Of a stretch of 64,000 nucleotides of DNA, positions 3,810-37,949 are shown piece by piece. The stretch covers positions 64,815-128,814 of the forward strand of contig DAHUZZ010000003.1 of assembly GCA_027314915.1 (NCBI GenBank). The letters are read 5' to 3'. The stretch is from Thermoplasmata archaeon. GTDB lineage: Archaea; Thermoplasmatota; Thermoplasmata; Lutacidiplasmatales; UBA184. The first letter of the stretch is position 1; each line of letters starts with the position of its first letter. Made by a program: the position numbers and the translations under genes. Under the pieces are notes generated by a model. The model saw only the letters and a program-made list of their open reading frames with translations, searched no databases and had not been told where the DNA came from.

Positions 3810-3914
3810 TGCTCCCGGCGGGAGTTTCCCCGCGAAGGCGGTCGGCCTTCGCGGCTTTGAACCCGCGTCAGAGGCTCGAGAGGCCTCTATCCTTGACCAC
3901 TAGACTACGGGAGC
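3810..3914 (-). tRNA. tRNA-Glu (anticodon CUC) with a 32-nt intron in the T-loop (approx. position 59/60); CCA not encoded
   Basis: Minus-strand read: GCTCCCG-TA-GTCT-AGTGGTCAA-GGAT-A-GAGGC-CTCTCGA-GCCTC-TGAC-GCGGG-TTCAAA-[GCCGCGAAGGCCGACCGCCTTCGCGGGGAAAC]-T-CCCGC-CGGGAGC-A. Removing the bracketed 32 nt restores a canonical GCGGG/TTCAAAT/CCCGC T-arm and a perfect 7-bp acceptor stem. The intron holds a 10-bp hairpin (CCGCGAAGGC/GCCTTCGCGG). Confidence 0.8.
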
Positions 3915-4050: not shown

Positions 4051-4536
4051 GTGCTAGGAAGCGTAGTGTCGCCTCCGGTCAAGGCCCGCAGCGGCCACAT
4101 CATCCTGGACGCGCGCGGGTCCTACAAGGATCTGGTGCGGGCCTACCCCGAGATCCACAAGCGCGTGGTCGAGGCGAACCGGCCCTTCCTCAAGGAGACC
4201 GAGCCGCTCCTGCCCGAGGTCCTCCTCGAGGAGAACCTCCGGGACATCCGGGCGAACCGGAAGCCCGCGGGCTACAACCGGCAGGACGCCGCGGGGATGC
4301 GGCTGGTCTTCCCGATCCCGGCCGAGCGACGGGCCGAGTTCTACTTCCTCAAGCCGGCCCGATGCCAGGAGGTGGTCCAGATCACCGAGCGGGTCTCCCA
4401 GCTCCTGCGCCGCCGCGGGATCAAGCACTCCGTCGAGTACGACCGGTTGCCGCTCGGCCCGCCGCGCGCCATCCCGGGACTTCCCCTGCCCGTGCCGACC
4501 CCCATCGGTCCGGGGTCGTACCTTCCGCCCCCCTGA
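4051..4536 (+). CDS. Hypothetical protein
   Basis: 161-aa ORF (GTG start) with normal composition including K/I/Y/F. AT-rich island GTAATGCTTAGTAGG just upstream. No family recognised. Confidence 0.6.
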   Translation: MLGSVVSPPVKARSGHIILDARGSYKDLVRAYPEIHKRVVEANRPFLKETEPLLPEVLLEENLRDIRANRKPAGYNRQDAAGMRLVFPIPAERRAEFYFLKPARCQEVVQITERVSQLLRRRGIKHSVEYDRLPLGPPRAIPGLPLPVPTPIGPGSYLPPP

Positions 4537-4545
4537 ACGGGGAGC

Positions 4546-7500
4546 TCACGCCCGGGTGTCGGCGCGGGCCGGCGGGACCCCGTCGGGGCCGTCCCCGCCA
4601 TCGACCTTCTGGATCGCCTCGTGCAGCAGCCGGAGCGCCTCCCGCGCCTTCTCGAGGGCGGGTCCGTAGTCCGTGGCCCGGAGCCGGACCGACTCCGAGA
4701 GGCATTTCCTCGCCTCCGCGGTATCGATGCGGCGCTCGACGGCGCGCCCCAGCGCGGCATCGACCAGGAAGTGGAGGTTCGTGAGCTCGCGGTGGAGCGC
4801 CTTGCGGCGGTTCAGCTCCTCCTCCACCTCCAGCAGGGCCCGGCCCGCCTCGACGGCGGCCCCCTCGGCGAGCCGCTTCCGGGCGAACTCGAACTTCTCG
4901 GCGGCGGGGCCGAGCGTCACGTGGAGCCCCTCGCGCGCGAAGATGAGCTCCGTCTCGACCTCCCGGAGCTTCTCGTCGAGGCGGCGCGTGACGAGCGTCT
5001 CGAGGGTGGCCTCGCCCTTCTCGACCAGCTTCGCGACGCCCTCGAGCGTGCCCGATTCGAGCGCGAGCTTCGCCTCGCTGAAGAGCTCCATCACGGGGGT
5101 CGTGTCGAGGCTGATCTTCTCCCCGATGAGGAGCCGCTCCTTGAGCTCGGCGATCTTCCGGGCGAGCTCGGTCTTGACCCGCTCCCGGGCGTGCGCCTCC
5201 TCCTCCCGGAGGAGGTCGAGCGCGACCGTGAAGTTCCGCTCGGCGCGCTCCGCCCGGATCCGCTCGGCGAAGGCGGCCCGGTGCGTGGTCTCCGGCTCGG
5301 GGGGCGCGGCCACCAGGCTGTAGACCACGTGGAGCGAGCGCTCGGCGGACTGGACCGCCCGGTCCAGCGCGAGGTAGGAGCGCTCCCGGCCCCGGGCGAG
5401 CGTCTCCGAGGCGCGCTTCCAGTCCCGGATCTTGACGGCCGCCTCGGCATCCTGCCGGGCGGACCGGACCGCGACGGCGTCCTCCTCCGAGCCGGCGGAC
5501 CGGACGAGCTCGCCCAGCTCCTGCAGCTCGGCGAGGGGGCCGGCGTAGAGCCGCTCGATCGCCCAGCGGGCCGCGTCGCCGGCCTCGAGGGACTGGCGCA
5601 TGGACCGATCGTACTCGCCCGCCTTGAGGAAGACGCGCGCGCGCTCGAGGAGCGGGAGGACATCGGTGAGCTCCGCGTTCATCTCGCCGGCCTCGCGGAT
5701 CGCCCGCTCCGCCGACTCGAGGCTGTCCCGGCCGCGCCGCTCGAGCTCGGTCGCGGCGGCGAGCGCGTCGCTCGCGGCGAGGCACCGCTCGAGCACGCGG
5801 GGGAACTCCCGGGCCCCGAAGGCCGCGCGGGCCTCCTCCAGCGCCTGGACGGAGGCGGGCGCGTTGAGGCCCGTCCGCTGGGCGGCGCGGAGGCGGTGGT
5901 CGAGCCGCTCGAGCGAGGAGCTCGCGATCTTGAGCTGCAGCTCCGCCCGCTCGAGCTCCCCCTCGCTGCGGGCCGCCAGCGTGAGCGCTTCCATCGGCTC
6001 CCCGGCCTCGAGGGCGGTCCGCGCCTGTTCGAGCAGATTCTCGGCGAGCGCGGTGAGGGCGCTCTCCTTCCGGGCCGCCGCGAGCGTCCCCTGGAAGGTG
6101 GCGAGCGTCTTCGCGACCTGCTGCCGGATCGCCTGGGCGATCTCGCGCTCGAGGTGGGAGGCCTGCTCGATCACCCGGGCGTAATCCCGCTCGGAGAGGT
6201 GGCGCTCCACCCGCTCGAGCCGGGGGCGGAACGGCCGGACGTCGACACGGACGATCTCGGCGCGGTTGAGCTCCTCCCGGGCGCGCTTCGTCGCGCGCTC
6301 GGCGTGCTCGAGGAAGCCCTTGGTCTCGAAGAACTTGGCCCGACCCGCGTCGAGGAGCTCGGCGACGCCGACGGGGATCGGGGCGGCGAGCTTCCGGCGG
6401 ATCTCGCCCAGCGACTCGGCGGCGTGCTCGACATCGAGGGGCACGGTGCGGGCGATCTCGACGTCGCGTTCGAGGCTGCGCAGGTTCTCCTCCAGGACGG
6501 GCCGGAGCTTCGAAACGAGCTCGGTCTCGAGGGCGCGGGCGCGTCCCCACGCCTCCTCCGGCGCCGGGGAGCCGAGGGTGTCCCGGATCCCTCCGATCCG
6601 CCCGGGGAGCCCCTCGACGGGGAGACCGAGCCGCCCGAGGTCCTCGACCATCAGGTCGCAGTCGTCGAGGCACCGCGCACCCTCGAACCGGGCCTGCTCG
6701 CGGCCGAGCGCGGCGCGCAGCTCGTCGACGAGACGGGCCGCGCGCTCGAACTCGAGCCCTTCGCAGGCCGTCCGGGCCAGCGCGATCTGCTCGGCGTAGG
6801 GCTGCACCGGCGCCCCGGAATCCTTGAGGGATTCCCACTGCTCGGTGGCCGCGCGGATCCGGTCGAGGATCGCCTGGGCGGTGGTCTTGAGCTTGGCCGC
6901 CGAATCGAGCGTCTTCTGGGCGGAGCGGTACGACTCGGGGTACAGCCCCTCCCGGGCACTGCCCTGGGCCGCCTCGAGGCTCGCCTTCAGCGCCGAGGGG
7001 TCGAGACCCATCTTCGAGAGCTCGACCAGGGCGAGCTTGGCATGCGAGATCGCCTCCTCGCTGCGGAGGAGCTGCTGGGTGTGCGCCCGGCTCCGGATAT
7101 CCTGGGCGGCCCGGAACGCCTTCACGAAGTCGCCCATGTTGAAGATCTGCTGGACCTCGTCGATCTGCCGCTGGATCTCCTCCCCGCTGCCGCCCATCTC
7201 GGTGAGGACCCGGAGCTCCTCCTCGAGGCCGTCCACGAGGCTCGAGGCGTGCTGCGCCGAGACCACCGAGAACTCCCGCTCGGCCCGCCGGAGGGTGTCG
7301 AAGGCCCCCTTGAGGTCCTCCTTCACCCGGAGCCCGACGTCGGCGTCCGCGAGGAGCCGCCGGACCGGGTCCACGAGCGCGCCGTCGGGGATCTCCGCGA
7401 GCCCCTTGGAGATCTCATCGAGCCGGTTCGCAAGATAGGGCTGGGCGGCGGTGCGGAGCTCCACCTGGAGCCGCGCGCAGGCGGTCGCCGCCTCGGGGAT

Positions 7501-9006
7501 CTCGCCCTCCTCGAGGTGCTTGCCGGCGGCGAGGAGGTGGTCCCCGAACTCCGACGGCAGGAACCCGAGCTGGGTCGCGAGCTGGCCGAGCCGCTCGAGG
7601 TCGGAGATCTGGGTCCGGAAGTGGAGGACCGCGGCCGCCCCGACCTGCTGGATGATGACGCGGAGCCGCTCCTCGACGGCGGGCAGCTCGACCCGTTCGA
7701 GGTGCTCCCGGACCTCCGCGAGCGCGGGTCGGTACTCCTCGTGGGGGAACCCGGTGCTGCTCAGGTGGTCGAGCAGCCCGGTCACGGTCTGGAGCTCGTC
7801 CCGGGCGGCCTCGAGGTCCTCGGTGAGCGCCGAGACGCGCTCCACCGCCTCCTGGCTCGCCGCGATCGCCTCGCCGTAGATGCGGAGCCTCAGCGCTTCG
7901 CGCGCCCGGTTCATGGCCGCGAAGACCTCCGTCGAGTTCCGCCCGAGCCGTCGGGCCTCGACGAGCTTGGGCCGGACCTCTTCCAGCAGGCCGGCCACGA
8001 GGCCGACGACCGGCTCCTCGACCACCCTGCGGGCCTCGGCGAGCGCGCGGGGGAGTTCGGCCGCCGGCAGGGTGGGGACGGGGGTGAAGACCGTCTCGAG
8101 CCGCGTGAGCGCCTCGGCGGGGTCGATGCCGAACTCCCCGAGGGAGGTGAGCAGCGCCCGGAACCCCTCGATCGTCTGGACCACGCGATCGCGAACGGCC
8201 CCGACGAGCCGGGACTCCTCCTTGGCCAGCGCCTGGGCGCTGGAGGGCGCGTCCAACACGAAGGCGGCGCGGTCCTTTTCGAGGGCGGACTCCAGCGACT
8301 GGGAGGGAACCCCGAGCTCCCGGGCGGCCGCGAGGATCCCGGCCGCCTCCTCCCGGATCGACCTCCACTGGGTGGCGGCCGCCGGGAGCTGCTCGTCGAT
8401 GGCGCGCACGATCTGCGGGGTCGGGTCCTCCGTCCGTCCCGCCCTCAGGCCCTCGAGCGCCGGCCCCAGCTGGTCCAGGATCGCGGCGGCCCGGTCGGCC
8501 GGGGCGTGCGCCCATTCGACGAGCGTACGGATCTGCGCCACCAGGGAGTCGACGTCCTTGGCCTGGGAGGCGACCACCGCCTCCTGGACGGCGAGCAGCT
8601 TCTCGATCGACTGGCGCCACTGGCCCTCCTTCTGGAGCGCCTCGGACTCGTCGAGCCACGTCGGCACCTCCGGCGCCACCGGGAACCTCCCGGAGGCGAG
8701 CCGCGCGATGCGCGCCTTGAGCTCGGTACGGCGCCCGAGGATCGGCGGGCCGCCCTCGTTCTCGAGGTAGACGAGCAGGCTCCGGGCCGCTCCCTCGGCC
8801 CCGTCCCAGTCGGAATGCTTGAGGTGCTCCCGCAGCGCCGCCTCGCGGGTCTCGGCCTCCGGGAGCACAAGGCCGGCGGAACGCAGCAGCTTCGCGTGCT
8901 CCTGCGCCTGATGGGCCGTCGACTCGGCCACCTGGCGTCGGCGCTTGAGCGTCTCCGCCTTCTCCTGGAGCATCTTGCTGAGCCGGGATGACGGGAGCGA
9001 CCCCAT
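4546..9006 (-). CDS. Giant (1486 aa) all-alpha helical-repeat/coiled-coil-like protein, no TM or signal peptide
   Basis: A/E/L/R-rich but with K, Q, I, F, W and Y present. Recurring motif G-[DE]-[YFW]-x-x-A about every 60-75 aa (e.g. GDFVKAFRAA, GEYDRSMRQS, RDWKRASETL, TDYGPALEKA). The equally long plus-strand ORF 4621-8991 has antisense-type L/G/R/P/D composition. Confidence 0.8.
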   Translation of the reverse strand: MGSLPSSRLSKMLQEKAETLKRRRQVAESTAHQAQEHAKLLRSAGLVLPEAETREAALREHLKHSDWDGAEGAARSLLVYLENEGGPPILGRRTELKARIARLASGRFPVAPEVPTWLDESEALQKEGQWRQSIEKLLAVQEAVVASQAKDVDSLVAQIRTLVEWAHAPADRAAAILDQLGPALEGLRAGRTEDPTPQIVRAIDEQLPAAATQWRSIREEAAGILAAARELGVPSQSLESALEKDRAAFVLDAPSSAQALAKEESRLVGAVRDRVVQTIEGFRALLTSLGEFGIDPAEALTRLETVFTPVPTLPAAELPRALAEARRVVEEPVVGLVAGLLEEVRPKLVEARRLGRNSTEVFAAMNRAREALRLRIYGEAIAASQEAVERVSALTEDLEAARDELQTVTGLLDHLSSTGFPHEEYRPALAEVREHLERVELPAVEERLRVIIQQVGAAAVLHFRTQISDLERLGQLATQLGFLPSEFGDHLLAAGKHLEEGEIPEAATACARLQVELRTAAQPYLANRLDEISKGLAEIPDGALVDPVRRLLADADVGLRVKEDLKGAFDTLRRAEREFSVVSAQHASSLVDGLEEELRVLTEMGGSGEEIQRQIDEVQQIFNMGDFVKAFRAAQDIRSRAHTQQLLRSEEAISHAKLALVELSKMGLDPSALKASLEAAQGSAREGLYPESYRSAQKTLDSAAKLKTTAQAILDRIRAATEQWESLKDSGAPVQPYAEQIALARTACEGLEFERAARLVDELRAALGREQARFEGARCLDDCDLMVEDLGRLGLPVEGLPGRIGGIRDTLGSPAPEEAWGRARALETELVSKLRPVLEENLRSLERDVEIARTVPLDVEHAAESLGEIRRKLAAPIPVGVAELLDAGRAKFFETKGFLEHAERATKRAREELNRAEIVRVDVRPFRPRLERVERHLSERDYARVIEQASHLEREIAQAIRQQVAKTLATFQGTLAAARKESALTALAENLLEQARTALEAGEPMEALTLAARSEGELERAELQLKIASSSLERLDHRLRAAQRTGLNAPASVQALEEARAAFGAREFPRVLERCLAASDALAAATELERRGRDSLESAERAIREAGEMNAELTDVLPLLERARVFLKAGEYDRSMRQSLEAGDAARWAIERLYAGPLAELQELGELVRSAGSEEDAVAVRSARQDAEAAVKIRDWKRASETLARGRERSYLALDRAVQSAERSLHVVYSLVAAPPEPETTHRAAFAERIRAERAERNFTVALDLLREEEAHARERVKTELARKIAELKERLLIGEKISLDTTPVMELFSEAKLALESGTLEGVAKLVEKGEATLETLVTRRLDEKLREVETELIFAREGLHVTLGPAAEKFEFARKRLAEGAAVEAGRALLEVEEELNRRKALHRELTNLHFLVDAALGRAVERRIDTAEARKCLSESVRLRATDYGPALEKAREALRLLHEAIQKVDGGDGPDGVPPARADTRA

Positions 9007-9160: not shown

Positions 9161-9547
9161 CTAGGCGCGGGTGATGCGCCGCTTGCCCATCGCCTCGAGG
9201 TACTGCACCTCGTTGCCGGGCTTGACCTGGTCCCGAATCTCGGCGTCGAGCGGGAGCGAGAAGGTCTCGTAGGTCTCGAGGTCCATGAGCTGCACTTCGA
9301 CCTCGGTCAGGCTCAGGACCTGCGCCTGGCGTTTCCCGATCATCGGGACCTGGACCTTGTGCTTCACCGGGAAGACGACGCTGCGCTTCGAGCCGTCGAA
9401 GAGCCCGACGGCATCGATGCGCGCCTTCGCTTCGCCGTGCTTGCCCGGTTTGGAGGTCTGGATGCTCAGGATCCGGCAGGGTTCCTCGTCGATGAGCATG
9501 TACCGCCCCTCCTTGAGCTCCCGGACCTCCTGCTGCGTCCACGCCAT
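9161..9547 (-). CDS. eif5a: Translation initiation factor 5A (aIF5A)
   Basis: 128 aa, MAWTQQEV...; hypusine-site motif [13 protein letters not shown]. The long 5' extension of track ORF 9161-10573 is a spurious Arg/Pro-rich read-through. Confidence 0.95.
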
Positions 9548-9637
9548 CGATGCGACTTCCGGCCCGCGGTCACGCCGGCGGGGGGAAAAGGATGTCGGCC
9601 GATTCGCGACGATCCTCCCCGACGGTAGCATAGGTTC

Positions 9638-12600
9638 ATGGCCGACGATCCGCATCGTACCCTTCGCCCCGGGTGCCCCGCGGCCCCCCCCATGCGCACG
9701 GTACCGGTCGAGTACGATGACGACCGGCTGAACGACGAGGCCGAGGAGTACTGGCGGGCGCGCCACCTCCCCGCCGGCACCGATCCGGCGCGCCCGGCGC
9801 CCCCGGGGACCGTCACCCTCGAGGGGCCCGCCCTTCCGGCGACGGGTCCCCTCGCTCCCGCGGTGCGGGCGGCCCAGGTCGCTGCCGACATCGGGCTCCG
9901 CTACCTCCTCCTCACGGGACGATCGGTCCGGGAGCTCGCCTTCACGCTCGACGCCGCGGACGCCGGGCACGAGGCGCCCGACCGGCTCGGGATCTGGTTC
10001 GGCCGGCGGTTCCCCCGCGGGCTCCGGGACCCGGCCCCGGGGGGCGATCGGTCGCGGCCGCTCACGGCCCTGGCGGCCCAGGGGCTGTTCGTCGCCCGCG
10101 ACCTCCCGACCCGGGTCTGTCCGCGGTGCGGCCGGAACCTCACGCCCGAGCGCATCGCCTACCGCGAGTCGCTCCGCCCGGCGACCGTCGCGACGTTCCC
10201 GCTCCTCGGACGCGATCCCCCGCTCTCCGCGCTCGTCTGGACCGATGCCGCATGGAAGCTCCTCGCCACCGAGGCCATCCTGCTGCACCCGGACCGACCG
10301 TACGTCCGGGTCGCCTGGCGCCGGCGCGGTACCGCGCAGTCGGTGCTCGTCGCGCGGCATGCCCTTCCCGAGCTCGTGCGGTGGCTTCCCCGGGGCGAGG
10401 CGAGCGTGGAGGAAGAGCGCCCCGGCTCTCAGTGGGCGGGGGGGCCCTACCGGCACCCCCTGGGGGAGGAGATGCCGCTCCTGGCCGATCTTCCCGCCCC
10501 GTCGGGCTCGCTGCTCGCCTCTTCCGCGGTGAAGCCGTGGGGAACGGGGATCGTGGCGCTCGCGCCGGCGCACGGCCCGGCCGATGGGCGGGTGGCCCGG
10601 GAGCTCCGCCTACCGGCACGGTCCGTCCTGGCCCCGAACGGGGACATCCTCGAGGCGCCCCCGAGCGCCTACGCGGGGATGCCGCTCGCGACCGCGGGAT
10701 CGTGCATCCTGCGCGACCTGGAGGAATCGGGGGCGCTCTTCGCCCGGCCGCTCCGGGCGGCGGGACGACCCCACTGTCTTGAGTGCGGGACCGAGGTGGT
10801 GTGGCGCAGCGGCCGGGCGTGGTGCCTCGACCTGGACCGGATCCCCGACGCCGTACGCGAACGGTTCGGTCGGCTGCTGCCGGGCGAGCCGTTCCCCGCC
10901 CCCACGGCCGGGCTCCTCTGGCCCGTGAGCGGCTCGGAGCCTTCGGGCGACCCCGCCGCTCCGGCGCTGGCAGAATCCCCCGCGTGCGGTCGGGTATTCG
11001 ATCTCCCCGGCCCGGAGCTCTGCCCCTGCGGCCTCGAACGCCCGGTCGCGGTCCGCCGCGCCCTTCTGCCGGAGTTCGCGGACGCCCTCTCGGAAGCGCT
11101 CCAGCTCGGGCCGCTCCCCGTCGGGGGCCCGCTCTGGCTACACCTGCCGGAACGACGCCGGGTCCCGGCCCTCCTGCACCGACTGCTCGCGTGGCACGCC
11201 ACCGAGCTCCGGCCCCCGGAGAGCCGGGTCGTCCTCGTGCGCGGGGGGACGGGCACCGCCGACCCGGACCCTTCCTCGGATGCCGACCGGGCCGCGATCG
11301 TCCGCGCCGCCCTCCTTCCCACCGACCGCCGGGACCTGGCGACCGCGCGGGAGGAGGAGCGGGACCGCCTCCGTCACCTCTGGAGCGACGTCGGCCGCTT
11401 CCTCGACGCGGCCACGCGGGCCGGCGTTCCGCCCGACCCGCACCCCATCACGGCCTACCGTTCCGAGCTCCTGCTCGAGGACCGCGCGCTCCTCTCGGCG
11501 TTCGAGCGCATGCGGCGGGACGCGCTCGGGCTGATGGATCAGGGCCGATGGGGCGCCGCCTACGCCCGATCGACACGGTTCTACGACCGGGACTTCCGGG
11601 AGGACTACCTGCGGGCGGCGGCGGGCCGGTTCGACGATCGCGCCGGGGCAGATGCGCGGAACGCGCTGTTCCACGTGCTCGACCACGTCTACGGCCGGCT
11701 CTGCGAGCTCTGGGGTCCGATCCATCCCCGCACGACGGAGGCGATCCATCGGGCGATCCTGGGGGAGGGCGCGAGCCTGTTCGAGGGCCGGATCGCGCCG
11801 GTCCAGCTGTCGCTCCTCGACGAGGCGGCGGAGACGGCCGTCGGGCCCTGGCTCGAACCGGCCCGGACGATGCGCTCCGCCCGTCGGCGGCTCGGTCTCG
11901 GCGAGGACGCCCGCGTCCCGCAGGTCGTGCTCGCCGCCGACTCGGAGGAGGTCGCCCAGCGCCTGGCTCCCGAGCCCGAGCTGGGCGCCCGGCTCCTCGG
12001 GGCCGCGAAGGTCGTGCTCGCGTCGCCGAGGGAGCCGTGGACCGGGCTCGAGTACTCGATCCTCGCGGACGAGGAGGAGGTCCGGAAGCGGTTCCCCGCC
12101 TACCATCGGAAGATCGTGCAGCTGCTCACGACGATGGACCCGCGCCGGGTCCGGGAGGCCGTCCGTGCCGACAGCCTCACGGTGGGGCTCGAGAACACCT
12201 CGATCCGGATCCCCCCGGCGCTCGTGCGCGTCCTCGAGCGGCTCCCGGACCGGTTCGCCTCGGTGCCCTGGTCCCACGGAGAGATCCTCGTGGAGCCGCC
12301 GACCCCTCCGGGGGGCGACCGGCCCGCGCGACTGCCCCCGGCCGCACAACGGGTGCTCGGCCACCTCGAGCGGCGATTGCGCCGGACCGGCGGCGATCTT
12401 CCCCCGGGATCCGAGATCCTCCTCGGGACCGACCCCTCCGGCGCGGCCGGACTCGGCCCGTACCTCCCGCGGCTGGGTGAGCGCCTGAAGGGAGCGAACG
12501 TACGGATCGCGAGCGCTCCGGAGGAGTTCGTGGCCCGGGAGACGAGCACCGGACGGATGGGCCCCGGACGATCCTTCCGGGCCCGGATCCCCGGACGGCC

Positions 12601-13573
12601 CGCCGCACCGCCCCGTGCCCGGCGGCCGGAACCCCCTTCCCGGGGAACGACCGTGCCCCGGGGCGCAATCGAGCGGGCGCCGACCCGTGAGGAGGCCGAC
12701 GGCCGGGGAGCTGACTTCGCGGCGTTCGAGGCCGATCTCTCGGAGGTCACCGCGGACGGACCTCTGGGGCCGGCCAAGGTCGCGGCCGCCTGGGATGCGG
12801 GGTTCCGATCCCGGGCGGAGCTCGCCGAGGCCGACCTGGACCGACTCGCGAGCCTGCCGGGCTTCGGGCCCTGGGTCGCGCGGGAGTTCCTCGCGCGCAT
12901 CGCGCCCGCCCGGAGCGTGCCCGGGGTGGTGCCCGGTCCCGCCCCGCGGATCGAGGTCGGGGAAGCGCCCCCTCAGGCCACGGTCGTAGCTCCGATGACC
13001 CCTCCGGCCCGTACGGCACCCTCTCCCGTGGCCCCGGTACCCGACGGCGCCGTTCCGCGAACCGACGCGGGCGTCCCCGTCGACGCGAGCCTCGGCGCCC
13101 GGACGGCCGGCCCCCCTGACCCCGCGACCCCGCCGGCCGGTGTGCACCTCCTGCTGGCCCCCAACCGGGACGAGGCCTGGGATCGGTTCCTGCGGGCGCT
13201 CTCGCCCGGCGCGCCGGGGCTCTGGGTGGGGCGTCTCTTCCCCCGCGCCCTCCAGTCGGCGGGCTCCGACCACGACGTCCGGTTCCTGTGGCTTTCGACC
13301 GCCGATCGGCCGAACTCGATCCGGCCCTCCGACCTACCGGGGCTCCGGGTGGAGCTCGAGCGCCAGCTGGGTCCGGGGGGGATCCGGACCGTGATCCTCG
13401 AGGAGATCGAGTATCTGGCCGCGCTCCACGGGGTCGACGCCGTGCGCGAGCTGGTGCAGGCGATCGATGTCCTCGCGCGGTTCCAGAACGTGGCCGTCTG
13501 GGTCCCGCTCGATCCCGGGCTCCTCCCGGGAGACCCCTCCGTCCTGACGAGGGGGCTCGGGCCGGCGCCGTGA
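9638..13573 (+). CDS. Class Ia aminoacyl-tRNA-synthetase-like (IleRS/ValRS-type) pseudoenzyme fused to an HhH motif and a C-terminal DUF835-like domain
   Basis: Colinear aaRS landmarks: Rossmann entry [28 protein letters not shown] (HIGH position reads LAPA), CP1 zinc knuckle VCPRCGRNL, editing-domain-like [19 protein letters not shown] and [35 protein letters not shown], and an anticodon-domain-like helical region. No KMSKS ([11 protein letters not shown] at the equivalent place). C-terminus: [16 protein letters not shown] (HhH), then [23 protein letters not shown]...[14 protein letters not shown]...VWVPLDPG (DUF835-like). Confidence 0.8.
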
Positions 13574-13577
13574 ACGG

Positions 13578-13808
13578 TCAGTCGGAGGTCCCTGCGTCGG
13601 GCGGCGGGGCCGACCGGGCGAGCGCCCGCCGGCCCAGCGCCCAGCCGACGGCTCCGAACACGACGGCCCCGAGGAGTGCGCCCCCGACCAGGTAGATCAG
13701 CGCCGGGCCGATATTGCTCAGCTCGATGAAGCCGAGCTGCTGGGCGAGGAGCGCTCCGACGATGCCGAGGGCGATGCCGCTCCCGATGCCGTGGGTGAGC
13801 GCGCTCAC
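13578..13808 (-). CDS. Small two-TM membrane protein
   Basis: About 76 aa (VSALTHGIGSGIALGIVGALLA...LIYLVGGALLGAVVFGAVGWAL). GTG start in a GTGA overlap with the stop of the upstream gene (13805-13808). Confidence 0.5.
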   Translation of the reverse strand: MSALTHGIGSGIALGIVGALLAQQLGFIELSNIGPALIYLVGGALLGAVVFGAVGWALGRRALARSAPPPDAGTSD

Positions 13809-14566
13809 GGCGACTCCTGGGACGGGGCATCGCCGCCGGCCGTCCCCGGCTCCGCGGGCGGGGTCGCGGCGGGCTCCGCCGCCCCGGGAGGTGCGCCGGA
13901 GGGGCCGGGAGGCGATCGCGGGGACTCCGCCGGAGCGCTCTTCGGAGCCGGGGCCCGACGGGCATACCGGCCGGAGATGGCGACCTCGTACAGCTCGTAG
14001 AGACCGATGAGCACCAGGAGGATCGGGAGGACCGCGAGGATCCCGTACGGCGCCGTCGCGTGGATCCAGAAGTTCTGGCTCCAGAGCGTCGAGCCGTTCG
14101 GGTCGAGCAGGCTCGCCGTGACAAGGTAGACGCCCGCGAGCGTCCACTGCAGCACCCCCGGATCCCAGCTCATGTCCAGGCTCCCGGTGTGCCCCGGGAC
14201 CGGGCTCTGCTCGACGACGTCGCGGGTCGAGAGGGCGATGCCGAAGTAGAACATCTGGAGCCGGGCGGTCCCCACGGTCACCGGTGGGGAGGTAGGGGTC
14301 GAGGTGTTCCAGTAGTACCGCACGTCGATCGGGTGGTCGAAGGTGATCTCGAGGGCCGCCGACGGAGTGTCGTAGCGTGCGACGGACCCTCCGTTCCAGG
14401 TCACGTTCCCGGACAGCGTCCCGCTCCCGGACGCGGCGGGGCGGAGGACCAGGCCCGACGCGGTGGCCACGGGGAAGCTCACCGGCACCACCAGAAGGAT
14501 CCCGAGGAGGACGGCCCCCGCGAGGAGCACTCTTCGGCCCCGGCGGGCCGAGCTCCGGAGGCTCAC
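13805..14566 (-). CDS. Secreted/membrane-anchored protein (signal peptide, beta-rich ectodomain with N-x-S/T sequons, C-terminal TM, Pro/Ala tail)
   Basis: 253-aa ORF with N-terminal RRGRRVLLAGAVLLGILLVVPV and C-terminal TM YGILAVLPILLVLIGLY. GTG start. Confidence 0.7.
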   Translation of the reverse strand: MSLRSSARRGRRVLLAGAVLLGILLVVPVSFPVATASGLVLRPAASGSGTLSGNVTWNGGSVARYDTPSAALEITFDHPIDVRYYWNTSTPTSPPVTVGTARLQMFYFGIALSTRDVVEQSPVPGHTGSLDMSWDPGVLQWTLAGVYLVTASLLDPNGSTLWSQNFWIHATAPYGILAVLPILLVLIGLYELYEVAISGRYARRAPAPKSAPAESPRSPPGPSGAPPGAAEPAATPPAEPGTAGGDAPSQESP

Positions 14567-14700: not shown

Positions 14701-15372
14701 CTACGGCGGCAGGGCACCGCCGAGCGGGTGGATCGCGACCGCCTTCACGTAGAGGACGACGTGGCTCCCGCGCCGGATCCGGAGGGCCCGCACCGACGGC
14801 GGGGTGATCCCGGCGAGGAAGCGGGCGCTCCCCACCCGGACGACCAGGAGCCGGCGCATGGGATCGATGCGGCGGATCTCCTCCACCTCGCCCTCGAGGG
14901 CGTTCCGGGCGCTGCTCGGGAACCGCCGTCGGGCGACGACGACCATCTCCGGGTCGATCCCGACCGTGACCCAACGGCCCTCGCGCGCGGGGAACCCGAC
15001 CTGGAGCACGGGGCCCCCCGCGATCTCGATCCGCGGGGATCTTCCGCCCCCGCGGGCCCGCCCCCGGAAGACCCCCATCTCCAGCGGCGCCGGGCCGGTC
15101 GGGGCGCGGGGATCGAGGTCCGAGGAGGGCCGCGCGGAGCGGAGGAGCCGGCGGCCGCGCTCGGTGAGGCGGCTCGCGCCCGCGCGGCGACCCCCCCGCG
15201 CGGAGGCGACCACCGGCGCGCCGAGCGCCTGCCGGAGCCTCAGGAGCCGGTACATCCCGCGGTCCCGGCCGATCCCGAGCCGTCGGCAGGCGGCCGCGAT
15301 GCTCCCCTCCTCCTCGATGGCCACGAGCAGGCCGACATCGAGCGGGCTCACGAGCCGCTCCGCGCGCCTCAC
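14701..15372 (-). CDS. ModE-like regulator (N-terminal HTH plus C-terminal TOBE/Mop molybdate-binding domain)
   Basis: 223 aa. HTH LLVAIEEEGSIAAACRRLGIGRDRGMYRLLRL. C-terminal TOBE-like NALEGEVEEIRRID...RVGS..F.A.IT. GTG start in a GTGA overlap with the ABC ATPase stop. Confidence 0.8.
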   Translation of the reverse strand: MRRAERLVSPLDVGLLVAIEEEGSIAAACRRLGIGRDRGMYRLLRLRQALGAPVVASARGGRRAGASRLTERGRRLLRSARPSSDLDPRAPTGPAPLEMGVFRGRARGGGRSPRIEIAGGPVLQVGFPAREGRWVTVGIDPEMVVVARRRFPSSARNALEGEVEEIRRIDPMRRLLVVRVGSARFLAGITPPSVRALRIRRGSHVVLYVKAVAIHPLGGALPP

Positions 15373-16403
15373 GGAACCCCCGGGACGGAGGCGATGGGGA
15401 GGCGCACGGTCCGCTCGGGATCGACCGATACCCGGACCTCCGATCCCGGCCGCGGGACGACCGCCGTCGCGCGGGCCGCGGCCTCGAGCACGATCCCGCC
15501 GGCATCGATCGCGAGGCTCGGTCCCGCCGGGGTCCATCGGCTCCGGAGGACCCGTCCGGGCCATCCGCCGGCCTCCCCGGGCCCTTCGATGGAGATCGCC
15601 TCCCGGGTGAAGGCGACGCCGCCCTCCCCCGACCGCTCGAGGAGCCAGGAGCGGAGCCCGCTCTCCGGACGGCTCGTGAGCCCCGGCAGCTCCCAGACGT
15701 TCTCGTAGCCCACGAGGCGCGCGGCGAACGCCGTCGGGGGGCTCCGGGCGAGGGTCGGCGCATCGCAGTCCACCACCGCCCGGCCCCGATCGAGGAGGAG
15801 GAACCGGTCGGCCACCGAGAAGGCGATCTCGGCGTCGTGCGTGACCACGATCAGGCTCCGCTTCCGCTTCGCCATCGCGGCGGCGATGACCTCGACCAGC
15901 TCGTGCCGCGCCGCGGGGTCGAGCGCGGCGAGCGGCTCGTCCCAGAGGAGGAGCTCCGGCTCGGCGGCCATCGCCCGGGCCATGGCGACGCGCTGCCGCT
16001 CCCCGCCCGAGAGCTCGGCGGGGTACCGTCGGCGGAAGCGGGTGAGCCCCCACTCCGCGAGCAGCCCTTCGACCTTCCTTGGGCGATCGCGGTCGCTCCT
16101 CAGCTCGAGCGGGTAGGCCAGGTTCGCCTCGACGGTCCGGTGGGGGATGAGGGCGAGGCCCTGGGGAACGTAGCCGATCCCGCGGCGCTCGGGAGGGAGC
16201 TCGCCGCTCGGACGCCCGGCCACCTCCAGGGTGCCCCCGGAGAGGTCGAGGAACCCCGCGATCGCCCGGAGGAACGTGGTCTTCCCCGCCCCCGAGGGGC
16301 CGAGCAGCGCGAGGACCTCGCCCGTCTCCAGGGCCAGGTCGATCGGTCCGAGCTGGAACCGGTCGAGCCGTGCGGTGAGCCCCCGCGCCTCGACCGCCCT
16401 CAT
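15369..16403 (-). CDS. wtpC: ABC transporter ATP-binding protein, tungstate/molybdate type
   Basis: 344 aa. Walker A GPSGAGKTT, signature LSGGERQRV, Walker B LLLWDEP, H-loop VTHD. ATGA overlap with the permease stop. Confidence 0.9.
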   Translation of the reverse strand: MRAVEARGLTARLDRFQLGPIDLALETGEVLALLGPSGAGKTTFLRAIAGFLDLSGGTLEVAGRPSGELPPERRGIGYVPQGLALIPHRTVEANLAYPLELRSDRDRPRKVEGLLAEWGLTRFRRRYPAELSGGERQRVAMARAMAAEPELLLWDEPLAALDPAARHELVEVIAAAMAKRKRSLIVVTHDAEIAFSVADRFLLLDRGRAVVDCDAPTLARSPPTAFAARLVGYENVWELPGLTSRPESGLRSWLLERSGEGGVAFTREAISIEGPGEAGGWPGRVLRSRWTPAGPSLAIDAGGIVLEAAARATAVVPRPGSEVRVSVDPERTVRLPIASVPGVP

Positions 16404-17254
16404 CCCACCGACCGGACCCAGCGCCAGGTCTCCGAACCGTGGAGGGCCGCCCACCGCGCCCCCGCGAAGATGGCGAAGGCGAGGAGCACCAGGAGCGCCG
16501 AGACGGCGACGGCGCCGGAGAGGTCGCCGATCTGGTAGAGGTTGAAGATGAACACCGAGAGCGGGCTCGTCACCGGCCCCGCGTAGGGCCCGGTCGGATA
16601 GACCGCGTAGGCGACGAGGAGGAACCCGCCGATCTCGCTGATGCCGCGACCCCAGGAGAGGAGCGCGCCGGCCAGGATCCCGCGCAGCGCCCCGGGGAGC
16701 ACGACGGAGGCGAACGCCTCCGAGGGGCTCGCGCCGAGGCTGCGCGCCGCCTCGACGACCCCGCGGTCGATGGCGCGGAAGGCGACCTCGCTCGCGAGGA
16801 CCGTGTAGGCGACGCTCACGTAGAACATGACCATGACCACGCCCCAGATCGTTTCGACGGGCGGGAAGCCGTAGCGGGCCAGGGCGGAGCCGAGGGGGCT
16901 GTCCGGGGCGACGAGCAGGAGGATCGCGAGCCCCCCGATGACGTGGGGCAGCACGGTGGGGAGCGTGATGAACGACTCCACGAGGAGCTTCCCCCGGAAC
17001 GGCCGTCGCGCGAAGAGGTAGCCGGTCGGGATCCCGAAGAGCAGCACGAGCCCGAGGCTGATGGCCGAGGCGAGGAGGGTGAGGCCGAGCGACGCGCGCA
17101 CCGCGGGATCCCCGGCCGCCTGTACCAGCTCCCCCCAGCTCGTCGCCCGGAAGAGGGCGAGGAGCGGTAAGAACAGGAGCACGACGAGCGCGGCGGCGAG
17201 GGTGATCTGGAGCCCGAGCCCGGCGCTCAGGTGGGTTCGGGACCGTGGGGGCAT
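16400..17254 (-). CDS. wtpB: ABC transporter permease, tungstate/molybdate type
   Basis: 284 aa, multi-TM. EAA-like loop VEAARSLGASPSEAFASVVLP. Confidence 0.9.
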   Translation of the reverse strand: MPPRSRTHLSAGLGLQITLAAALVVLLFLPLLALFRATSWGELVQAAGDPAVRASLGLTLLASAISLGLVLLFGIPTGYLFARRPFRGKLLVESFITLPTVLPHVIGGLAILLLVAPDSPLGSALARYGFPPVETIWGVVMVMFYVSVAYTVLASEVAFRAIDRGVVEAARSLGASPSEAFASVVLPGALRGILAGALLSWGRGISEIGGFLLVAYAVYPTGPYAGPVTSPLSVFIFNLYQIGDLSGAVAVSALLVLLAFAIFAGARWAALHGSETWRWVRSVG

Positions 17255-17272
17255 GGGCGGACTCCCCCGACG

Positions 17273-18382
17273 CTAGCCGGGCAGGCCGAGCGAGCTCGGC
17301 GCCGGGACCACCTCCGGCTGGAGGGTGGCGGGCAGCGCCGCCGAGCCCCAGCCGTAGGCCGGGACGATCGGGTCGAACCCCATCTGGGAGAGGAGGGCCG
17401 CCCCGGCGGGCGAGAGCAGGGTCTCGACGAAGAGCTCGCCGAGCGTCGCGTTCGGTGCGTTCGTGGGCACCGTGATCGCGAAGGCGACGGGCGCCCCGTG
17501 CACGACGACCGAGGCGCCGGACGCGTTCTCGATGGTGGTGGAGGCCTCCGCGTAGATGGTGAGGAGCGAGGAGTTGAACCCGCCCAAGTTCACGCGCGGG
17601 TCGAAGTTGACGAAGTCCAGGTGGTGCTCGAGGGCGTAGGAGCGGTAGGTGATGTAGGCCACCACGACGTGCTCGGAGAGCAACGTCGCGACCTCCGTCT
17701 CCGGCTCGATCCGGACCGTGCCGGGGTCGGCCTGGGCGAATCCGCCGGGGGGGCCGGAGAAGAAGTGGCCGTAGACCGCGCCCGACGAACCCTCGACGAG
17801 GATCCCCTCGAGCTCGAGGACGAAGATCTCGTTGTAACCGTTCGGATCGCTCGAGGCGTTCGCGAAGCCCACGTACTCCCCGGCGGGGAGCGCGAGGAGC
17901 TTCCCGGCCCAGTTCGTGGAGTTGATCCCGGCGAGCGCCGGGACCGATGGATCGTAGGCGAGCACCTCCGGCGTCGAGGCGAAGAGCGCCTCCCAGGTGG
18001 CGTACCGCGGGCTCAGGAGCTCGGGGATCAGGTGGTAGTCCGCCGCGGCGGCGACATCGTACAGCCCGTGCGCCTCGGAGATCTGGTCGAGCGCGGCGAG
18101 GCTGCCTTCGTAGGTCTGCGCGGCGGTCGGGGCCTGCGCTCCGGGGCTCTCGTTCACCACCCGCCCCGCCACCACGGGGAAGGTGGTGCCGAGGGTCCCC
18201 GCGGCCGTGATCGAGAGCACGGGGGAGCCCGAGTTCGGGCTGGGGGGGCCGATCGGGGAGCCGTCCTGGGACCCCCGCAGCAGGTACCCGCCGAGGAGGC
18301 CCGCCGTGAGGCAGAGGATCGCGATCGCGACGGCCCAGAGCGGGTGCAGGCGGCCGACCATGGATGTGGGTAGTTCCCACAT
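17273..18382 (-). CDS. wtpA: Periplasmic-type substrate-binding protein, WtpA-like (tungstate/molybdate)
   Basis: 369 aa with an N-terminal anchor helix. AAGTL...YDVAAAADYHLIPELLSPRYATWEALFASTPEVLAY resembles the WtpA SADY.LIP..M.P.YADW block. Alternative start at 18361 (MVGRLHPLW...) sits 24-29 nt after a CTTAAG island. Confidence 0.8.
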   Translation of the reverse strand: MWELPTSMVGRLHPLWAVAIAILCLTAGLLGGYLLRGSQDGSPIGPPSPNSGSPVLSITAAGTLGTTFPVVAGRVVNESPGAQAPTAAQTYEGSLAALDQISEAHGLYDVAAAADYHLIPELLSPRYATWEALFASTPEVLAYDPSVPALAGINSTNWAGKLLALPAGEYVGFANASSDPNGYNEIFVLELEGILVEGSSGAVYGHFFSGPPGGFAQADPGTVRIEPETEVATLLSEHVVVAYITYRSYALEHHLDFVNFDPRVNLGGFNSSLLTIYAEASTTIENASGASVVVHGAPVAFAITVPTNAPNATLGELFVETLLSPAGAALLSQMGFDPIVPAYGWGSAALPATLQPEVVPAPSSLGLPG

Positions 18383-18455
18383 CGCTTAAGCGCTCGCCCA
18401 TCGGGGGACGGCCGGCGCGCCCGGCTCCCGGGCGGAGCTCATCTGCCCGGGCCGC

Positions 18456-19223
18456 GTGCCGGCCGCGACGACCGACGCACCTCCCTACCGGACCCGGGCC
18501 CTCGATCGGCCGGACGCCGTCGAGCGCGAGCTGCCGGGCGAGCTCTCGGGGCCGTTCCGGCCGTACCTGGCCTACTTCGCGCGCGAGCAGCTGAGGAGCG
18601 GCGGCGAGGTCCGCCTCCTGGAGCGGGACGGGCGCGTGGCCGGGCTCCTCCTCCTCGATCCCGTGGAGCGGCTGGGGACCCTCTTCACCGAGGACCCGGA
18701 GCTGGCGGGACAGGTCGCGGGCTCGCTCCACGGCCTTGGTCTCTTTGCGCCGTTCCCGCTCGCGGCCCACGCCGAGCCGTTCCGCCTCCTCCGGGGACCG
18801 GCGGGGCCCGAGGACGCCGCTTACCCGTTCCGCCACGCCGTCCGGCGGACCCGTCCGGAGGAGTACCCCCGGGTGGGGCGCCTCCTCCACGAGATCGAGG
18901 GACGGCTCAACCCGCGCTGGCTCGAGGGCGCGCCGCCGAGCGAGGGGTGCCTGCAGGTGGAGTACGGCGGGGAGCTCGCGGGCGCGGGCTGGGTCTCGGT
19001 CGTCGGCGCGCACGCCCGGCTCCACTCGCTCGCGGTCCGGCCGCGGTACCGTCGGCTGGGCATCGCCACGGACCTCGTCCGCGCCCGGAAGATCTGGGCC
19101 TACCAGCACGGGGCCCGGTCGGTCCTCTCGGAGATCGCGGCCGGCAACACCGGGTCGCTCGTGCCCACCGAGCGCGCCGGGCTCTCGGCGATCGGGGAGA
19201 TCTTCCTCACGCGCCTAACGTAG
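18456..19223 (+). CDS. GNAT family N-acetyltransferase
   Basis: 255 aa. Acetyl-CoA motif A HSLAVRPRYRRLGIATDLV. Confidence 0.75.
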   Translation: MPAATTDAPPYRTRALDRPDAVERELPGELSGPFRPYLAYFAREQLRSGGEVRLLERDGRVAGLLLLDPVERLGTLFTEDPELAGQVAGSLHGLGLFAPFPLAAHAEPFRLLRGPAGPEDAAYPFRHAVRRTRPEEYPRVGRLLHEIEGRLNPRWLEGAPPSEGCLQVEYGGELAGAGWVSVVGAHARLHSLAVRPRYRRLGIATDLVRARKIWAYQHGARSVLSEIAAGNTGSLVPTERAGLSAIGEIFLTRLT

Positions 19224-37193: not shown

Positions 37194-37949
37194 CTAGAGC
37201 GGCACGACCTCGATCCCCTTCTCTCCGACCGAGGCGCGGTAGATGCGGGCGAGCTCGGGGTGGTTCCGGACCTTGCGGACGATGATCTTGGGCGCGATCA
37301 CGCTCTCCTGCTCCTCGAGCTCGGAGGCGAGGACGAAGTCCGCGACGAGCTCGAGCAAGGCGAGGGTGCGGAGCTCGGGCACCTCGGGACGGACCACGAC
37401 GAGCGCGCTGCCCCCCACGGCCGCGGCGCGTTCGCGGATCTGGCGCGCGAACCGCTCCGCCCCGGCGGCGCCGAGCTCGTCCAGGAGCGGATCGATCGAG
37501 TCGAGGACGTACCGGAAGGGGCCGTCGAGCGGCGCGATGTCGGTCACGAGCCGCCCCCCCACCGCGGGGGGCGCCCGTCGCGGGGCGGCGCCGCCCACCT
37601 CCACCTGCGCTTCGGCCAGGGTGAGCCCCTTGGCGCGCGCCCGCGCGACCGCGAGCTCACGGTGGAGCAGGTCGGACCAGAGCTCCTGTTCGAGGTCGAT
37701 GACGTTCACCCCGGAGGATTCCCACCCGAGCGCGTCGAAGGCCCGGGTCACCTCGGCGGCCGTTTCGTGGGTCGCGTAGTAGTACACGGGGACGGACGCG
37801 GCGCCGGCGTGCGCGGCCTGCTTCGCGAGGAGGTGGCCCAGCCCGCCGCCGTCGTCCTCGATGAGCCCGAGCCAGCCGGCGGGCAGCGCGGACTCGAGCG
37901 GGCGATCCAGCTCGGGTAGGTCGAAGATCGGCACGCGTCCGCCGCTCAC
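37194..37949 (-). CDS. KaiC/RecA-like protein with degenerate Walker A
   Basis: 251 aa. Colinear with the KaiC-like fold, but the P-loop position reads IEDDGGGLGHLL (no GK[ST]). GTG start in a GTGA overlap with the upstream stop. Confidence 0.7.
   Translation of the reverse strand: MSGGRVPIFDLPELDRPLESALPAGWLGLIEDDGGGLGHLLAKQAAHAGAASVPVYYYATHETAAEVTRAFDALGWESSGVNVIDLEQELWSDLLHRELAVARARAKGLTLAEAQVEVGGAAPRRAPPAVGGRLVTDIAPLDGPFRYVLDSIDPLLDELGAAGAERFARQIRERAAAVGGSALVVVRPEVPELRTLALLELVADFVLASELEEQESVIAPKIIVRKVRNHPELARIYRASVGEKGIEVVPL

Follow-up and report, generated by a model that had tools for sequence, protein, structure and literature searches.

A stretch of 64,000 nucleotides from contig DAHUZZ010000003.1 (assembly GCA_027314915.1; hereafter the window) carries a gene that joins the remains of an isoleucyl-tRNA synthetase (IleRS) to a domain known from archaeal signalling. 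The source is a high-GC soil archaeon of the Thermoplasmata, apparently of the order Lutacidiplasmatales. In the encoded protein, called the pseudo-IleRS below, the catalytic core has been dismantled, while purifying selection has kept the zinc sites, the fold of the CP1 editing domain, and the anticodon-binding and C-terminal domains of the IleRS. These are followed by a helix-hairpin-helix (HhH) region, a low-complexity tether and a terminal DUF835 domain. The pseudo-IleRS is a synthetase paralogue that lacks catalysis and has gained an extra module; a sensor or adaptor that binds tRNA is a likelier role for it than that of an enzyme. We describe the gene and its domains, their distribution among relatives, and the functions that may be considered for them.

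The gene and its start site

The locus was first noted in a reading of the letters alone (the sequence-only reading), and the open reading frame (ORF) of 1311 aa reported there at 9638..13573 on the forward strand is confirmed, together with every peptide quoted from its translation. With a local GC content of about 75%, long ORFs are present in all frames, so that the length of an ORF by itself proves nothing and homology has to decide. The protein database contains one 99%-identical protein and ten relatives of the same architecture at 33-43% identity, and by this standard the gene is genuine and not an artefact. Its start has to be moved. The true initiation codon is very probably the ATG at 9692 (M19 of the long ORF), giving 1293 aa, because the 99%-identical protein (P0001) and all relatives begin there and because the ATG at 9638 falls within a conserved promoter-like AT-rich box. 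All residue numbers given here are counted from the methionine encoded at 9692. The gene had also been described as divergent from that of aIF5A across 90 bp; the divergence holds, and the spacer measures 144 bp from the revised start. The features of the locus are collected in Table 1.

Table 1. Coordinates in the window, strand and distinguishing marks of the pseudo-IleRS gene, its domains and the conserved neighbouring genes.
Pseudo-IleRS-HhH-DUF835 gene	9692..13573	+	1293 aa from the probable ATG; longest ORF from 9638
Degenerate N-terminal Rossmann half, aa 1-135	9692..10096	+	HIGH reads APAV; GWDxHGLP deleted; 5/13 (38%) invariant positions kept
CP1 editing-like domain, aa 136-380	10097..10831	+	Zinc knuckles C143/C146 and C362/C365
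Degenerate second Rossmann half, aa 381-560	10832..11371	+	Cys cluster C429/C432/C444/C446; 7/29 (24%) invariant positions kept
Helical anticodon-binding domain, aa 561-760	11372..11971	+	Pfam Anticodon_1 at nt 11480..11914
C-terminal domain of archaeal-type IleRS (Pfam DUF5915), aa 761-985	11972..12646	+	Colinear in alignment
Arg-rich linker and helix-hairpin-helix region	12647..12907	+	Pfam HHH_5 at nt 12764..12871
Pro/Ala-rich low-complexity tether	12908..13135	+	76 aa here; about 64-600 aa in relatives
DUF835 (PF05763), inactivated KaiC-like domain	13136..13531	+	Pfam, alignment-based model, Foldseek
Weak TATA-like AT-rich box, family consensus GAGGGTTTATTC	9628..9640	+	About 52 nt upstream of ATG 9692
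aIF5A, divergent neighbour	9161..9547	-	Pfam IF5A-like_N and eIF-5a
1486-aa all-helical protein, no known family	4546..9006	-	Member of the conserved block
Protein of about 150-160 aa, no known family	4051..4536	+	Member of the conserved block

A synthetase body without catalytic motifs

Alignment with bona fide IleRS is colinear along about 1000 aa, in agreement with the class Ia synthetase-like N-terminal part recognized in the sequence-only reading, and matches to PDB 1ILE (the IleRS of Thermus thermophilus), to the NCBIfam profile ileS and to Anticodon_1 fall within this part. The body had been called IleRS/ValRS-like. The first half of that label holds and the second does not, the ileS match being the stronger (75 bits, 4e-21) against 44-51 bits (5e-14) for valS. 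The ileS profile (TIGR00392) is nevertheless matched over residues 142-406 only, at 74.9 bits (E 4e-21) against a cutoff of 621.4, a shortfall that excludes a housekeeping enzyme, and a Pfam scan of the whole protein returned no tRNA-synt_1 match.

The four signature motifs of the active site are all gone. In the alignment with real IleRS, the HIGH position reads APAV and no member of the family has a histidine pair there; a block of about 34 residues comprising GWDxHGLP is deleted; where DQTRGWF would stand, the sequence is RRRVPALL (with R488-R489-R490), and D530-A-x-R533 is retained further on; and the KMSKS loop is deleted. The loss of HIGH and KMSKS, proposed earlier from the letters, is thus borne out by alignment. 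HIGH, GWDxHGLP, DQTRGWF and KMSKS are missing from all 50 family sequences tabulated, none of which has an intact HIGH or KMSKS shifted to a position at or near the aligned sites, and the residues under these two positions vary even inside the family. When the family was compared with 26 canonical-length IleRS, which served as the reference for invariant columns, 24 of those columns proved to be deleted.

The remaining parts differ in how much of the ancestor they keep. Taken alone, the two Rossmann halves match the IleRS profile weakly (hhalign probability 32% and 14%), so their assignment rests on colinearity, and it is in this sense that the Rossmann landmark named in the sequence-only reading stands. 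The anticodon-binding domain scores 31.4 bits with Anticodon_1 (Pfam cutoff 25.1) and keeps 8/16 (50%) of the canonical-invariant positions, and the C-terminal IleRS domain is recovered, again colinearly, by the canonical IleRS profile with an hhalign probability of 93% (E 2.4e-7). Two clusters of cysteines, the paired CP1 knuckles and the set in the second Rossmann half, are retained.

The protein therefore reads in two ways at once. Homology to IleRS by descent is indicated by similarity that is colinear in the CP1, anticodon-binding and C-terminal domains and exceeds that to ValRS. On profile score, on HIGH/KMSKS, on GWDxHGLP/DQxRGWF and on the editing site, it falls outside the functional class Ia IleRS. 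It is a catalytically dead descendant of IleRS. Compared with the canonical enzyme represented by 1ILE and TIGR00392, it has the same colinear domains, CP1 zinc knuckles, GTG loop, editing Asp, and anticodon-binding and C-terminal domains, and it differs in that the catalytic motifs are gone, the editing peptide and His are replaced, and about 300 additional C-terminal residues carry the HhH region and DUF835.

The CP1 editing-like domain

Decay is uneven along the protein: the catalytic halves are lost, whereas the CP1 pocket is strongly conserved. Residues 147-398 align with residues 167-407 of 1ILE (E 7.7e-16), and 25/44 (57%) of the canonical-invariant positions are retained. Conservation was assessed in 39 sequences, consisting of 38 full-length relatives from genome loci and the window protein. 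By this measure CP1 is the most conserved part: conservation of 90% or more is reached at 31% of its positions, compared with 9-16% elsewhere in the synthetase body, 23% in the HhH region and 18% in DUF835. Eight residues, W183, D185, W188, G284, G286, P292, H294 and D298, are invariant in 39/39 sequences, and the pocket is further marked by K/R189 and by the G284-T-G286 (GTG) loop.

The conserved residues are only in part those of a canonical editing site. WTTTPWT of canonical IleRS has become W-[TV]-D-A-x-W-[KR] in the window family and the canonical editing His has become Pro or Ala, so that the Asp (D298), two Trp and the GTG loop are the only editing features kept. D298 is aligned with an Asp in the GTGIVHQAPAFGAED segment of 1ILE. 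According to work on the T. thermophilus enzyme, this Asp holds the amino acid under editing by its alpha-amino group; the roles given here to the Thr-rich peptide and the editing His follow the same work. The pocket has been remodelled and has not simply decayed.

The appended C-terminal module

The HhH motif reported in the sequence-only reading is recognized by HHH_5 (PF14520) at 29.6 bits, above the Pfam cutoff of 27. Two HhH-type hairpins are present, LGPAK...AW..G and LPGFG, in which LGP.K and GFG are at least 90% conserved across the 39 sequences and AW is conserved too; the region is 45% identical to the HhH of a fused IleRS from another lineage (P0121). The tether that follows has the lowest conservation along the protein and a low predicted model confidence (pLDDT), and is taken to be disordered.

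The earlier identification of the C-terminus as DUF835-like is upheld. Tested alone, the domain scores 36.8 bits against a Pfam cutoff of 33.1, and in the context of the whole protein 31.4 bits, just below it; all 12 of 12 family members tested match (best E 1.8e-14). Conserved residues include W1200-L, P1212, D1214, E1237 and E1240-Y-L, and a Walker-B-like acidic strand, VILEEIEYL, is conserved. Between strand 1 (GVHLLL) and helix 1, at the place of Walker A (GxxxxGK[ST]), the window protein reads APNR on inspection by eye, and no GK[ST] was seen at the P-loop site in any row of the DUF835 alignment, likewise by eye and without a motif scan.

A single-sequence model of the C-terminal 297 aa had a pLDDT of 43 and was discarded in favour of an AlphaFold model of DUF835 built from a 35-sequence alignment (pLDDT 87.2, pTM 0.82). 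A Foldseek search of the PDB with this model placed KaiC CI, Shu1/2 (a Rad51-paralogue pair), ArlH/FlaH, DMC1 and RadA on top, with E values from 5e-4 to 3e-3; ArlH/FlaH (PDB 4YDS) has the highest TM-score among the structural matches (TMq 0.59) at about 12% sequence identity. The profile of the DUF835 alignment found no meaningful match among PDB sequences, the best being a small terminase at E 0.01, and the relation to KaiC and RecA is consequently one seen by fold comparison only. With the DUF835 domain by itself as query, a word-indexed search for homologues yielded just two fragments. The modelled domain thus has a RecA/KaiC-like alpha/beta fold without a visible P-loop, as the sequence-only reading had suggested.

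Inactivated KaiC domains were reportedly defined by Makarova and colleagues in a 2017 paper in mBio. Galperin et al. (2018, PMC5847659) list DUF835, as an inactivated KaiC-like domain, among the outputs of archaeal response regulators found in Methanomicrobia and Thermoplasmata, and they cite KaiC ATPases as proposed archaeal signalling hubs. The window protein has in common with those response regulators the Pfam family, the KaiC/RecA-like fold lacking a visible P-loop and the C-terminal position as presumed output, in a group, the Thermoplasmata, from which they have been reported; the input is different, being a receiver or PAS domain there and a dead synthetase of about 1000 aa here.

KaiC-like proteins also lie elsewhere in the window. 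Those noted earlier at 37194-38539 are two degenerate KaiC-like ORFs, 37946..38539 and 37194..37949 (both on the reverse strand), with weak KaiC and DUF7504 matches, and a true KaiC-type ATPase adjoins them at 38543..39319 on the same strand, with Walker A GSVGTGKT and an NCBIfam KaiC score of 140.8 bits. This ATPase is a candidate partner of the DUF835 domain.

Distribution and the conserved gene block

When one species-representative genome was scanned for each GTDB species, members of the family turned up at 78 loci. The label is Thermoplasmata in every case except one, a 2-kb fragment whose bin is called 'bacterium'. Among the loci, one bears the name Candidatus Lutacidiplasmatales, and several belong to metagenome-assembled genomes (MAGs) from acidic soil in the paper that defined the order (PMC9287336). 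The loci, which include megabase contigs and one complete chromosome, supply 38 uninterrupted full-length copies of 1356-1820 aa from independent assemblies, and the gene is therefore not an assembly chimera of two genes, which the sequence-only reading had raised as a way in which it might be wrong. Identity among the copies is 31-43%, yet many columns are invariant. The pseudo-IleRS is conserved across the order, and the aminoacylation site has been dismantled in a high-GC soil clade that includes the Lutacidiplasmatales.

The order of the genes is fixed: pseudo-IleRS, aIF5A, a giant gene and a small gene. aIF5A lies directly upstream and divergent in 74/74 loci with upstream sequence, and the small protein, 67-97% identical, is found in 51/51 loci that reach far enough. 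The giant helical protein (about 1490 aa) is 38-47% identical in the GTDB loci and, by global alignment, 42-50% identical in six metagenome loci. Searches of Pfam, NCBIfam, PADLOC and the PDB sequences found no match for the 1486-aa or the roughly 150-aa neighbour. A role in defence was rejected, because PADLOC had no match for the pseudo-IleRS either. Genes outside the block are not common to the loci (0/39 upstream, 0/42 further downstream). The genomes that carry the family are fairly close kin, with aIF5A 78-92% identical; because they all fall in one clade, the synteny may be merely inherited.

The spacer between aIF5A and the pseudo-IleRS gene (9548..9691 in the window) is mostly 138-144 bp long in 47 genomes. 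An alignment of the 47 spacers contains two conserved AT-rich boxes, GATAAGAGTTGC and GAGGGTTTATTC, of which the window copies are weaker and the second encloses the upstream ATG at 9638; they are probably back-to-back archaeal promoters.

A wider fusion family in Thermoplasmatota

When 1.84 billion representatives were searched by phmmer without filters, the IleRS body as query returned about 50 full-length members of the core family (50% clustering) and, ranked above ordinary IleRS, a second tier of proteins of 1228-2329 aa that are 20-25% identical to the window family. NCBI lists them, under Thermoplasmata or Ca. Thermoplasmatota, as 'isoleucine--tRNA ligase' or 'class I tRNA ligase family protein'. 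Six of them, scanned with Pfam, contain tRNA-synt_1 at 296-445 bits together with Anticodon_1 and DUF5915, an HhH in 5/6 and a terminal DUF835 at 108-125 bits; altogether 14 second-tier relatives match the DUF835 profile of the window family (E 1e-21 to 1e-26). Examples of fused proteins are MBX8637091.1 (Ca. Sysuiplasma acidicola), MCK4757139.1, MBA3046026.1 and MCL4325861.1.

Five of the 14 fusions keep HxGT, GFDMHGLP, WTTTPWT, the editing His and Asp, DQTRGWF and xMSKS. HxGT is counted as intact because many canonical-length archaeal IleRS in the same table show it. The other nine have lost KMSKS, HIGH or more. The existence of motif-intact examples means that the fusion is not peculiar to a dead enzyme, a point missing from the sequence-only reading. 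The fusions of other Thermoplasmatota have the IleRS body, Anticodon_1, the DUF5915-type domain, the HhH, a variable linker and the terminal DUF835 in common with the window protein; they differ in having a catalytic domain that Pfam recognizes as tRNA-synt_1, in their GC content and in their surroundings, and it is the window family that has lost the motifs.

The second-tier fusions lie on contigs of 44-51% GC and do not adjoin aIF5A; two of the genes (for P0132 and P0135) come after rpoE-spt4-DUF359-S24e-S27ae, and some 5 kb upstream lies a KaiC-like gene. There is no support for placing the pseudo-gene at the ancestral ileS locus, as fused IleRS genes elsewhere follow rpoE-spt4-S24e-S27ae and not aIF5A. 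Nine low-GC Thermoplasmatota fusions (P0121, P0123, P0132, P0135, P0137, P0151, P0154, P0156 and P0161; L087-L089) have a recognizable catalytic domain with KMSKS and/or HIGH lost, in some of them also the editing motifs, under the public label isoleucine--tRNA ligase.

In a rough neighbour-joining tree the motif-intact fusions nest among archaeal IleRS, and the window family sits on a long branch with other degenerate forms; this grouping of degenerate forms is not to be trusted, as long-branch attraction is possible. Since relatives with the same module range from motif-intact to heavily degenerate, the simplest reading would be that the HhH-tether-DUF835 module joined a working IleRS first and that its function outlived catalysis, which was lost later and apparently more than once. 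The module and the tRNA-side domains would have been kept after catalysis went, and the window protein, which belongs to the most degenerate branch of the family, would be the most extreme product. An IleRS-HhH-DUF835 fusion family that spans motif-intact and dead forms in Thermoplasmatota is, as far as we can tell, previously undescribed. Literature searches found no described IleRS/KaiC or IleRS/DUF835 fusion and no published DUF835 architecture with an aminoacyl-tRNA synthetase, the 2017 mBio survey of KaiC-like proteins lying outside the searched literature.

Motif-dead IleRS relatives of about 1000 aa, without DUF835, were also seen in bacteria: P0181 (MDD2694403.1, from an Anaerolineales bacterium), P0168 and P0171, all labelled 'class I tRNA ligase family protein'. 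In P0181, WSDAAWK replaces WTTTPWT, much as in the archaeal family, and this remodelling of the editing pocket may be either convergent or related.

Canonical IleRS in the host clade

The 64-kb window encodes no canonical IleRS, none lies closer than 10 kb to the gene in the 78 loci, and IleRS is not listed in the supplements of the Lutacidiplasmatales paper (PMC9287336). A canonical, unfused IleRS of 1123 aa with HIGT, AMSKS and all other motifs intact, P0149 (MEA3201231.1), comes from a Thermoplasmata MAG, on contigs of 71% GC (L090, 10001..13372; L091, 6147..9518). Its assembly differs from that of every traceable pseudo-gene locus, and its flanks have no genes in common with those loci. 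P0149 may represent the housekeeping IleRS type of the high-GC clade.

A possible sensor, and its alternatives

The sequence-only reading saw in this protein a tRNA- or nucleic-acid-binding scaffold with a signalling output, a plausible view that agrees with the published role of DUF835 (PMC5847659). In the form that we prefer, to which we assign a probability of roughly 0.45 and which is therefore offered tentatively, the dead IleRS docks a tRNA, reads its 3' end or an amino acid in CP1, and signals through DUF835 to a KaiC/RecA-type ATPase. A tRNA, most simply tRNA-Ile, would be docked by the anticodon-binding and C-terminal domains with the assistance of the Arg-rich linker and the HhH; the remodelled CP1 pocket, in which the conserved Asp of editing domains is kept, would sense the state of the 3' end or an amino acid; and the tethered DUF835 would relay this information by protein-protein contact with an active KaiC/RecA-type ATPase. 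Such a working logic would resemble that of the HisRS-like domain of GCN2, with a KaiC-type output replacing the kinase.

Several points weigh against this sensor model. Every functional step in it is one that we infer, and the C-terminal IleRS domain of the window protein keeps 0/3 canonical-invariant positions. With the Thr-rich peptide and the editing His lost, the pocket may bind something besides an aminoacyl end. HhH motifs usually bind double-stranded DNA, not tRNA. No KaiC gene adjoins the pseudo-IleRS gene, the nearest being 24 kb off, and the conserved neighbours, aIF5A and two proteins of no known family, suggest another partnership of which the model makes no use. A canonical IleRS, moreover, was found neither in the window nor within 10 kb of the pseudo-gene in the 78 loci.

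The closest analogue of the proposed mechanism is GCN2, an eIF2-alpha kinase with a synthetase-derived, non-catalytic HisRS-like domain fused to its signalling module. Both proteins place a dead synthetase domain and a signalling module in one polypeptide; they differ in that a class II HisRS is combined with a kinase in GCN2 and a class Ia IleRS with an inactivated KaiC-like domain here, so that the logic is shared and the family is not. The Pfam scan of the window protein found no kinase domain, and GCN2 serves as an analogy only. By that analogy one could go further and see in the pseudo-IleRS an archaeal GCN2 counterpart that reads tRNA-Ile charging or branched-chain supply and signals through DUF835 into a KaiC-ATPase network, where it may cooperate with aIF5A and the two neighbour proteins; this fuller version we regard as unlikely. 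That tRNA may act as a starvation sensor is a general theme (PMC4374736).

The structural likeness of the output domain points to a further comparison. The best structural match by TM-score to the DUF835 model is the KaiC-like fold of ArlH/FlaH, a small, single-domain regulator of the archaellum motor ATPase that acts by binding this hexameric enzyme. ArlH has a P-loop and binds ATP, whereas the DUF835 domain has no visible P-loop and is shorter, at about 135 aa.

The sensor model would assign the CP1 pocket a binding role, and the same conservation invites a catalytic one. In this alternative, D185, K/R189, H294 and D298 would form a new active site, hydrolytic or transferring, for an aminoacyl-tRNA or a related substrate, for example that of a trans-editing deacylase or a tRNA-dependent transferase, with the dead core docking the tRNA and DUF835 regulating or localizing the enzyme. 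That CP1 is the most conserved region, and that the new D185 and H294 are invariant beside the retained D298 and GTG loop, is more like an active site than a passive surface; the partly degenerate P0132 and P0135, furthermore, keep WTTTPWT though KMSKS is lost. A ligand-binding sensor would equally show invariant residues, however, the Thr-rich peptide and His of class Ia editing sites are gone, and Pfam and NCBIfam recognize no known hydrolase motif, which together make an enzyme of this kind rather improbable.

The conserved gene block suggests, in turn, a scaffold in translation that senses nothing and binds aIF5A, a tRNA-shaped factor, or the proteins of about 1490 or 150 aa, with DUF835 as an oligomerization or docking module. 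It could be likened to the synthetase paralogues that act on EF-P (EpmA/PoxA) or to those that nucleate multi-synthetase complexes. No locus that extends far enough lacks the block, its outer flanks are not common to the loci, and the spacer length and the two promoter-like boxes are conserved. Against this stand the restriction to one clade, in which the synteny may be inherited; the related IleRS-HhH-DUF835 genes of other Thermoplasmatota, which do not adjoin aIF5A; the divergent transcription, which makes no operon; and the want of an adenylation site for modifying aIF5A. We consider a pure scaffold a doubtful proposition.

Paralogues of synthetases with non-canonical roles are well represented by HisZ, by EpmA/PoxA, which acts on EF-P, and by GluQRS/YadB. 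The pair of EpmA and EF-P is paralleled by the pseudo-IleRS adjoining aIF5A, the archaeal EF-P homologue. These paralogues are otherwise class II or GluRS-type, most of them with an active adenylation site and none with a KaiC-like domain. The active adenylate-forming core of an EpmA/PoxA-type modifier is missing here together with the catalytic motifs, and the adjacency to aIF5A is the one analogous feature. HisZ and non-charging synthetase paralogues have been treated as a topic in their own right (PMC5388404).

The two remaining explanations have next to no probability left. A housekeeping IleRS with shifted or unusual motifs might be argued from the colinearity, from one partial copy labelled 'class I tRNA ligase family protein' by NCBI and from the absence of another IleRS in the window, but it is refuted at the sequence level by the ileS score of 74.9 bits against a cutoff of 621, by the want of any HIGH- or KMSKS-like motif at or near the aligned, unconserved sites of 50 members, and by the deletion of GWDxHGLP and of 24 invariant columns, while a canonical unfused IleRS is known from Thermoplasmata contigs of 71% GC. 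A decaying pseudogene, a GC-rich shadow ORF or a two-gene chimera, to which the high GC content with its long ORFs and the long low-complexity linker between the two halves might lend some colour, is likewise refuted by the 78 loci, by the 38 uninterrupted copies in independent assemblies with their many invariant columns at low identity, and by about 50 database representatives, and both halves match curated domain models.

Why the family matters

Amino-acid starvation sensing in archaea is poorly understood, and to our knowledge Archaea lack both RelA and GCN2. We know of few sensing pseudo-synthetases (the HisRS-like domain of GCN2, HisZ), of none from class Ia, and of none joined to archaeal KaiC-type signalling. 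A conserved dead IleRS joined to a signalling domain is a concrete candidate for such sensing; if the model is true, no tRNA-based starvation sensor would have been described in Archaea before it.

The family would also be of interest for its history. One phylum holds motif-intact, partly decayed and fully dead forms, a natural series for the conversion of an essential enzyme into a non-catalytic protein which, if the sensor model is true, would trace the path from a housekeeping synthetase to a pure sensor, and which bears as well on the role of the DUF835 module in an originally active enzyme. A more practical consequence concerns annotation, because the labels 'isoleucine--tRNA ligase' and 'class I tRNA ligase family protein', given to many of these proteins by current pipelines, can hide which genuine IleRS genes a reconstructed Thermoplasmatota genome contains. 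Both the candidate link between tRNA and KaiC signalling and the decay series deserve experimental attention.

Other genes near the pseudo-IleRS

Downstream, at 14701..19109 on the reverse strand, the translations include a ModE/TOBE-like regulator, an ABC ATPase (LLGPSGAGKTT) and a permease (16400..17254); judged from these translations only, the group looks like a molybdate/tungstate-type ABC transport operon, and its genes are not common to related loci. Closer to the pseudo-IleRS gene, at 13805..14566 (reverse strand), lies a gene whose 253-aa product, membrane-type and without a family match, has a signal-like segment at its N-terminus and a hydrophobic one at its C-terminus. A homologue of it is found in 26/42 loci, in 25 of them on the same strand as the pseudo-IleRS gene and within about 300 bp downstream of it; in the window the gene is inverted and convergent with the pseudo-IleRS gene. 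On the other side of the block, just upstream of the conserved small gene, the only tRNA gene of the window encodes tRNA-Glu (anticodon CTC) at 3844..3914 on the reverse strand.

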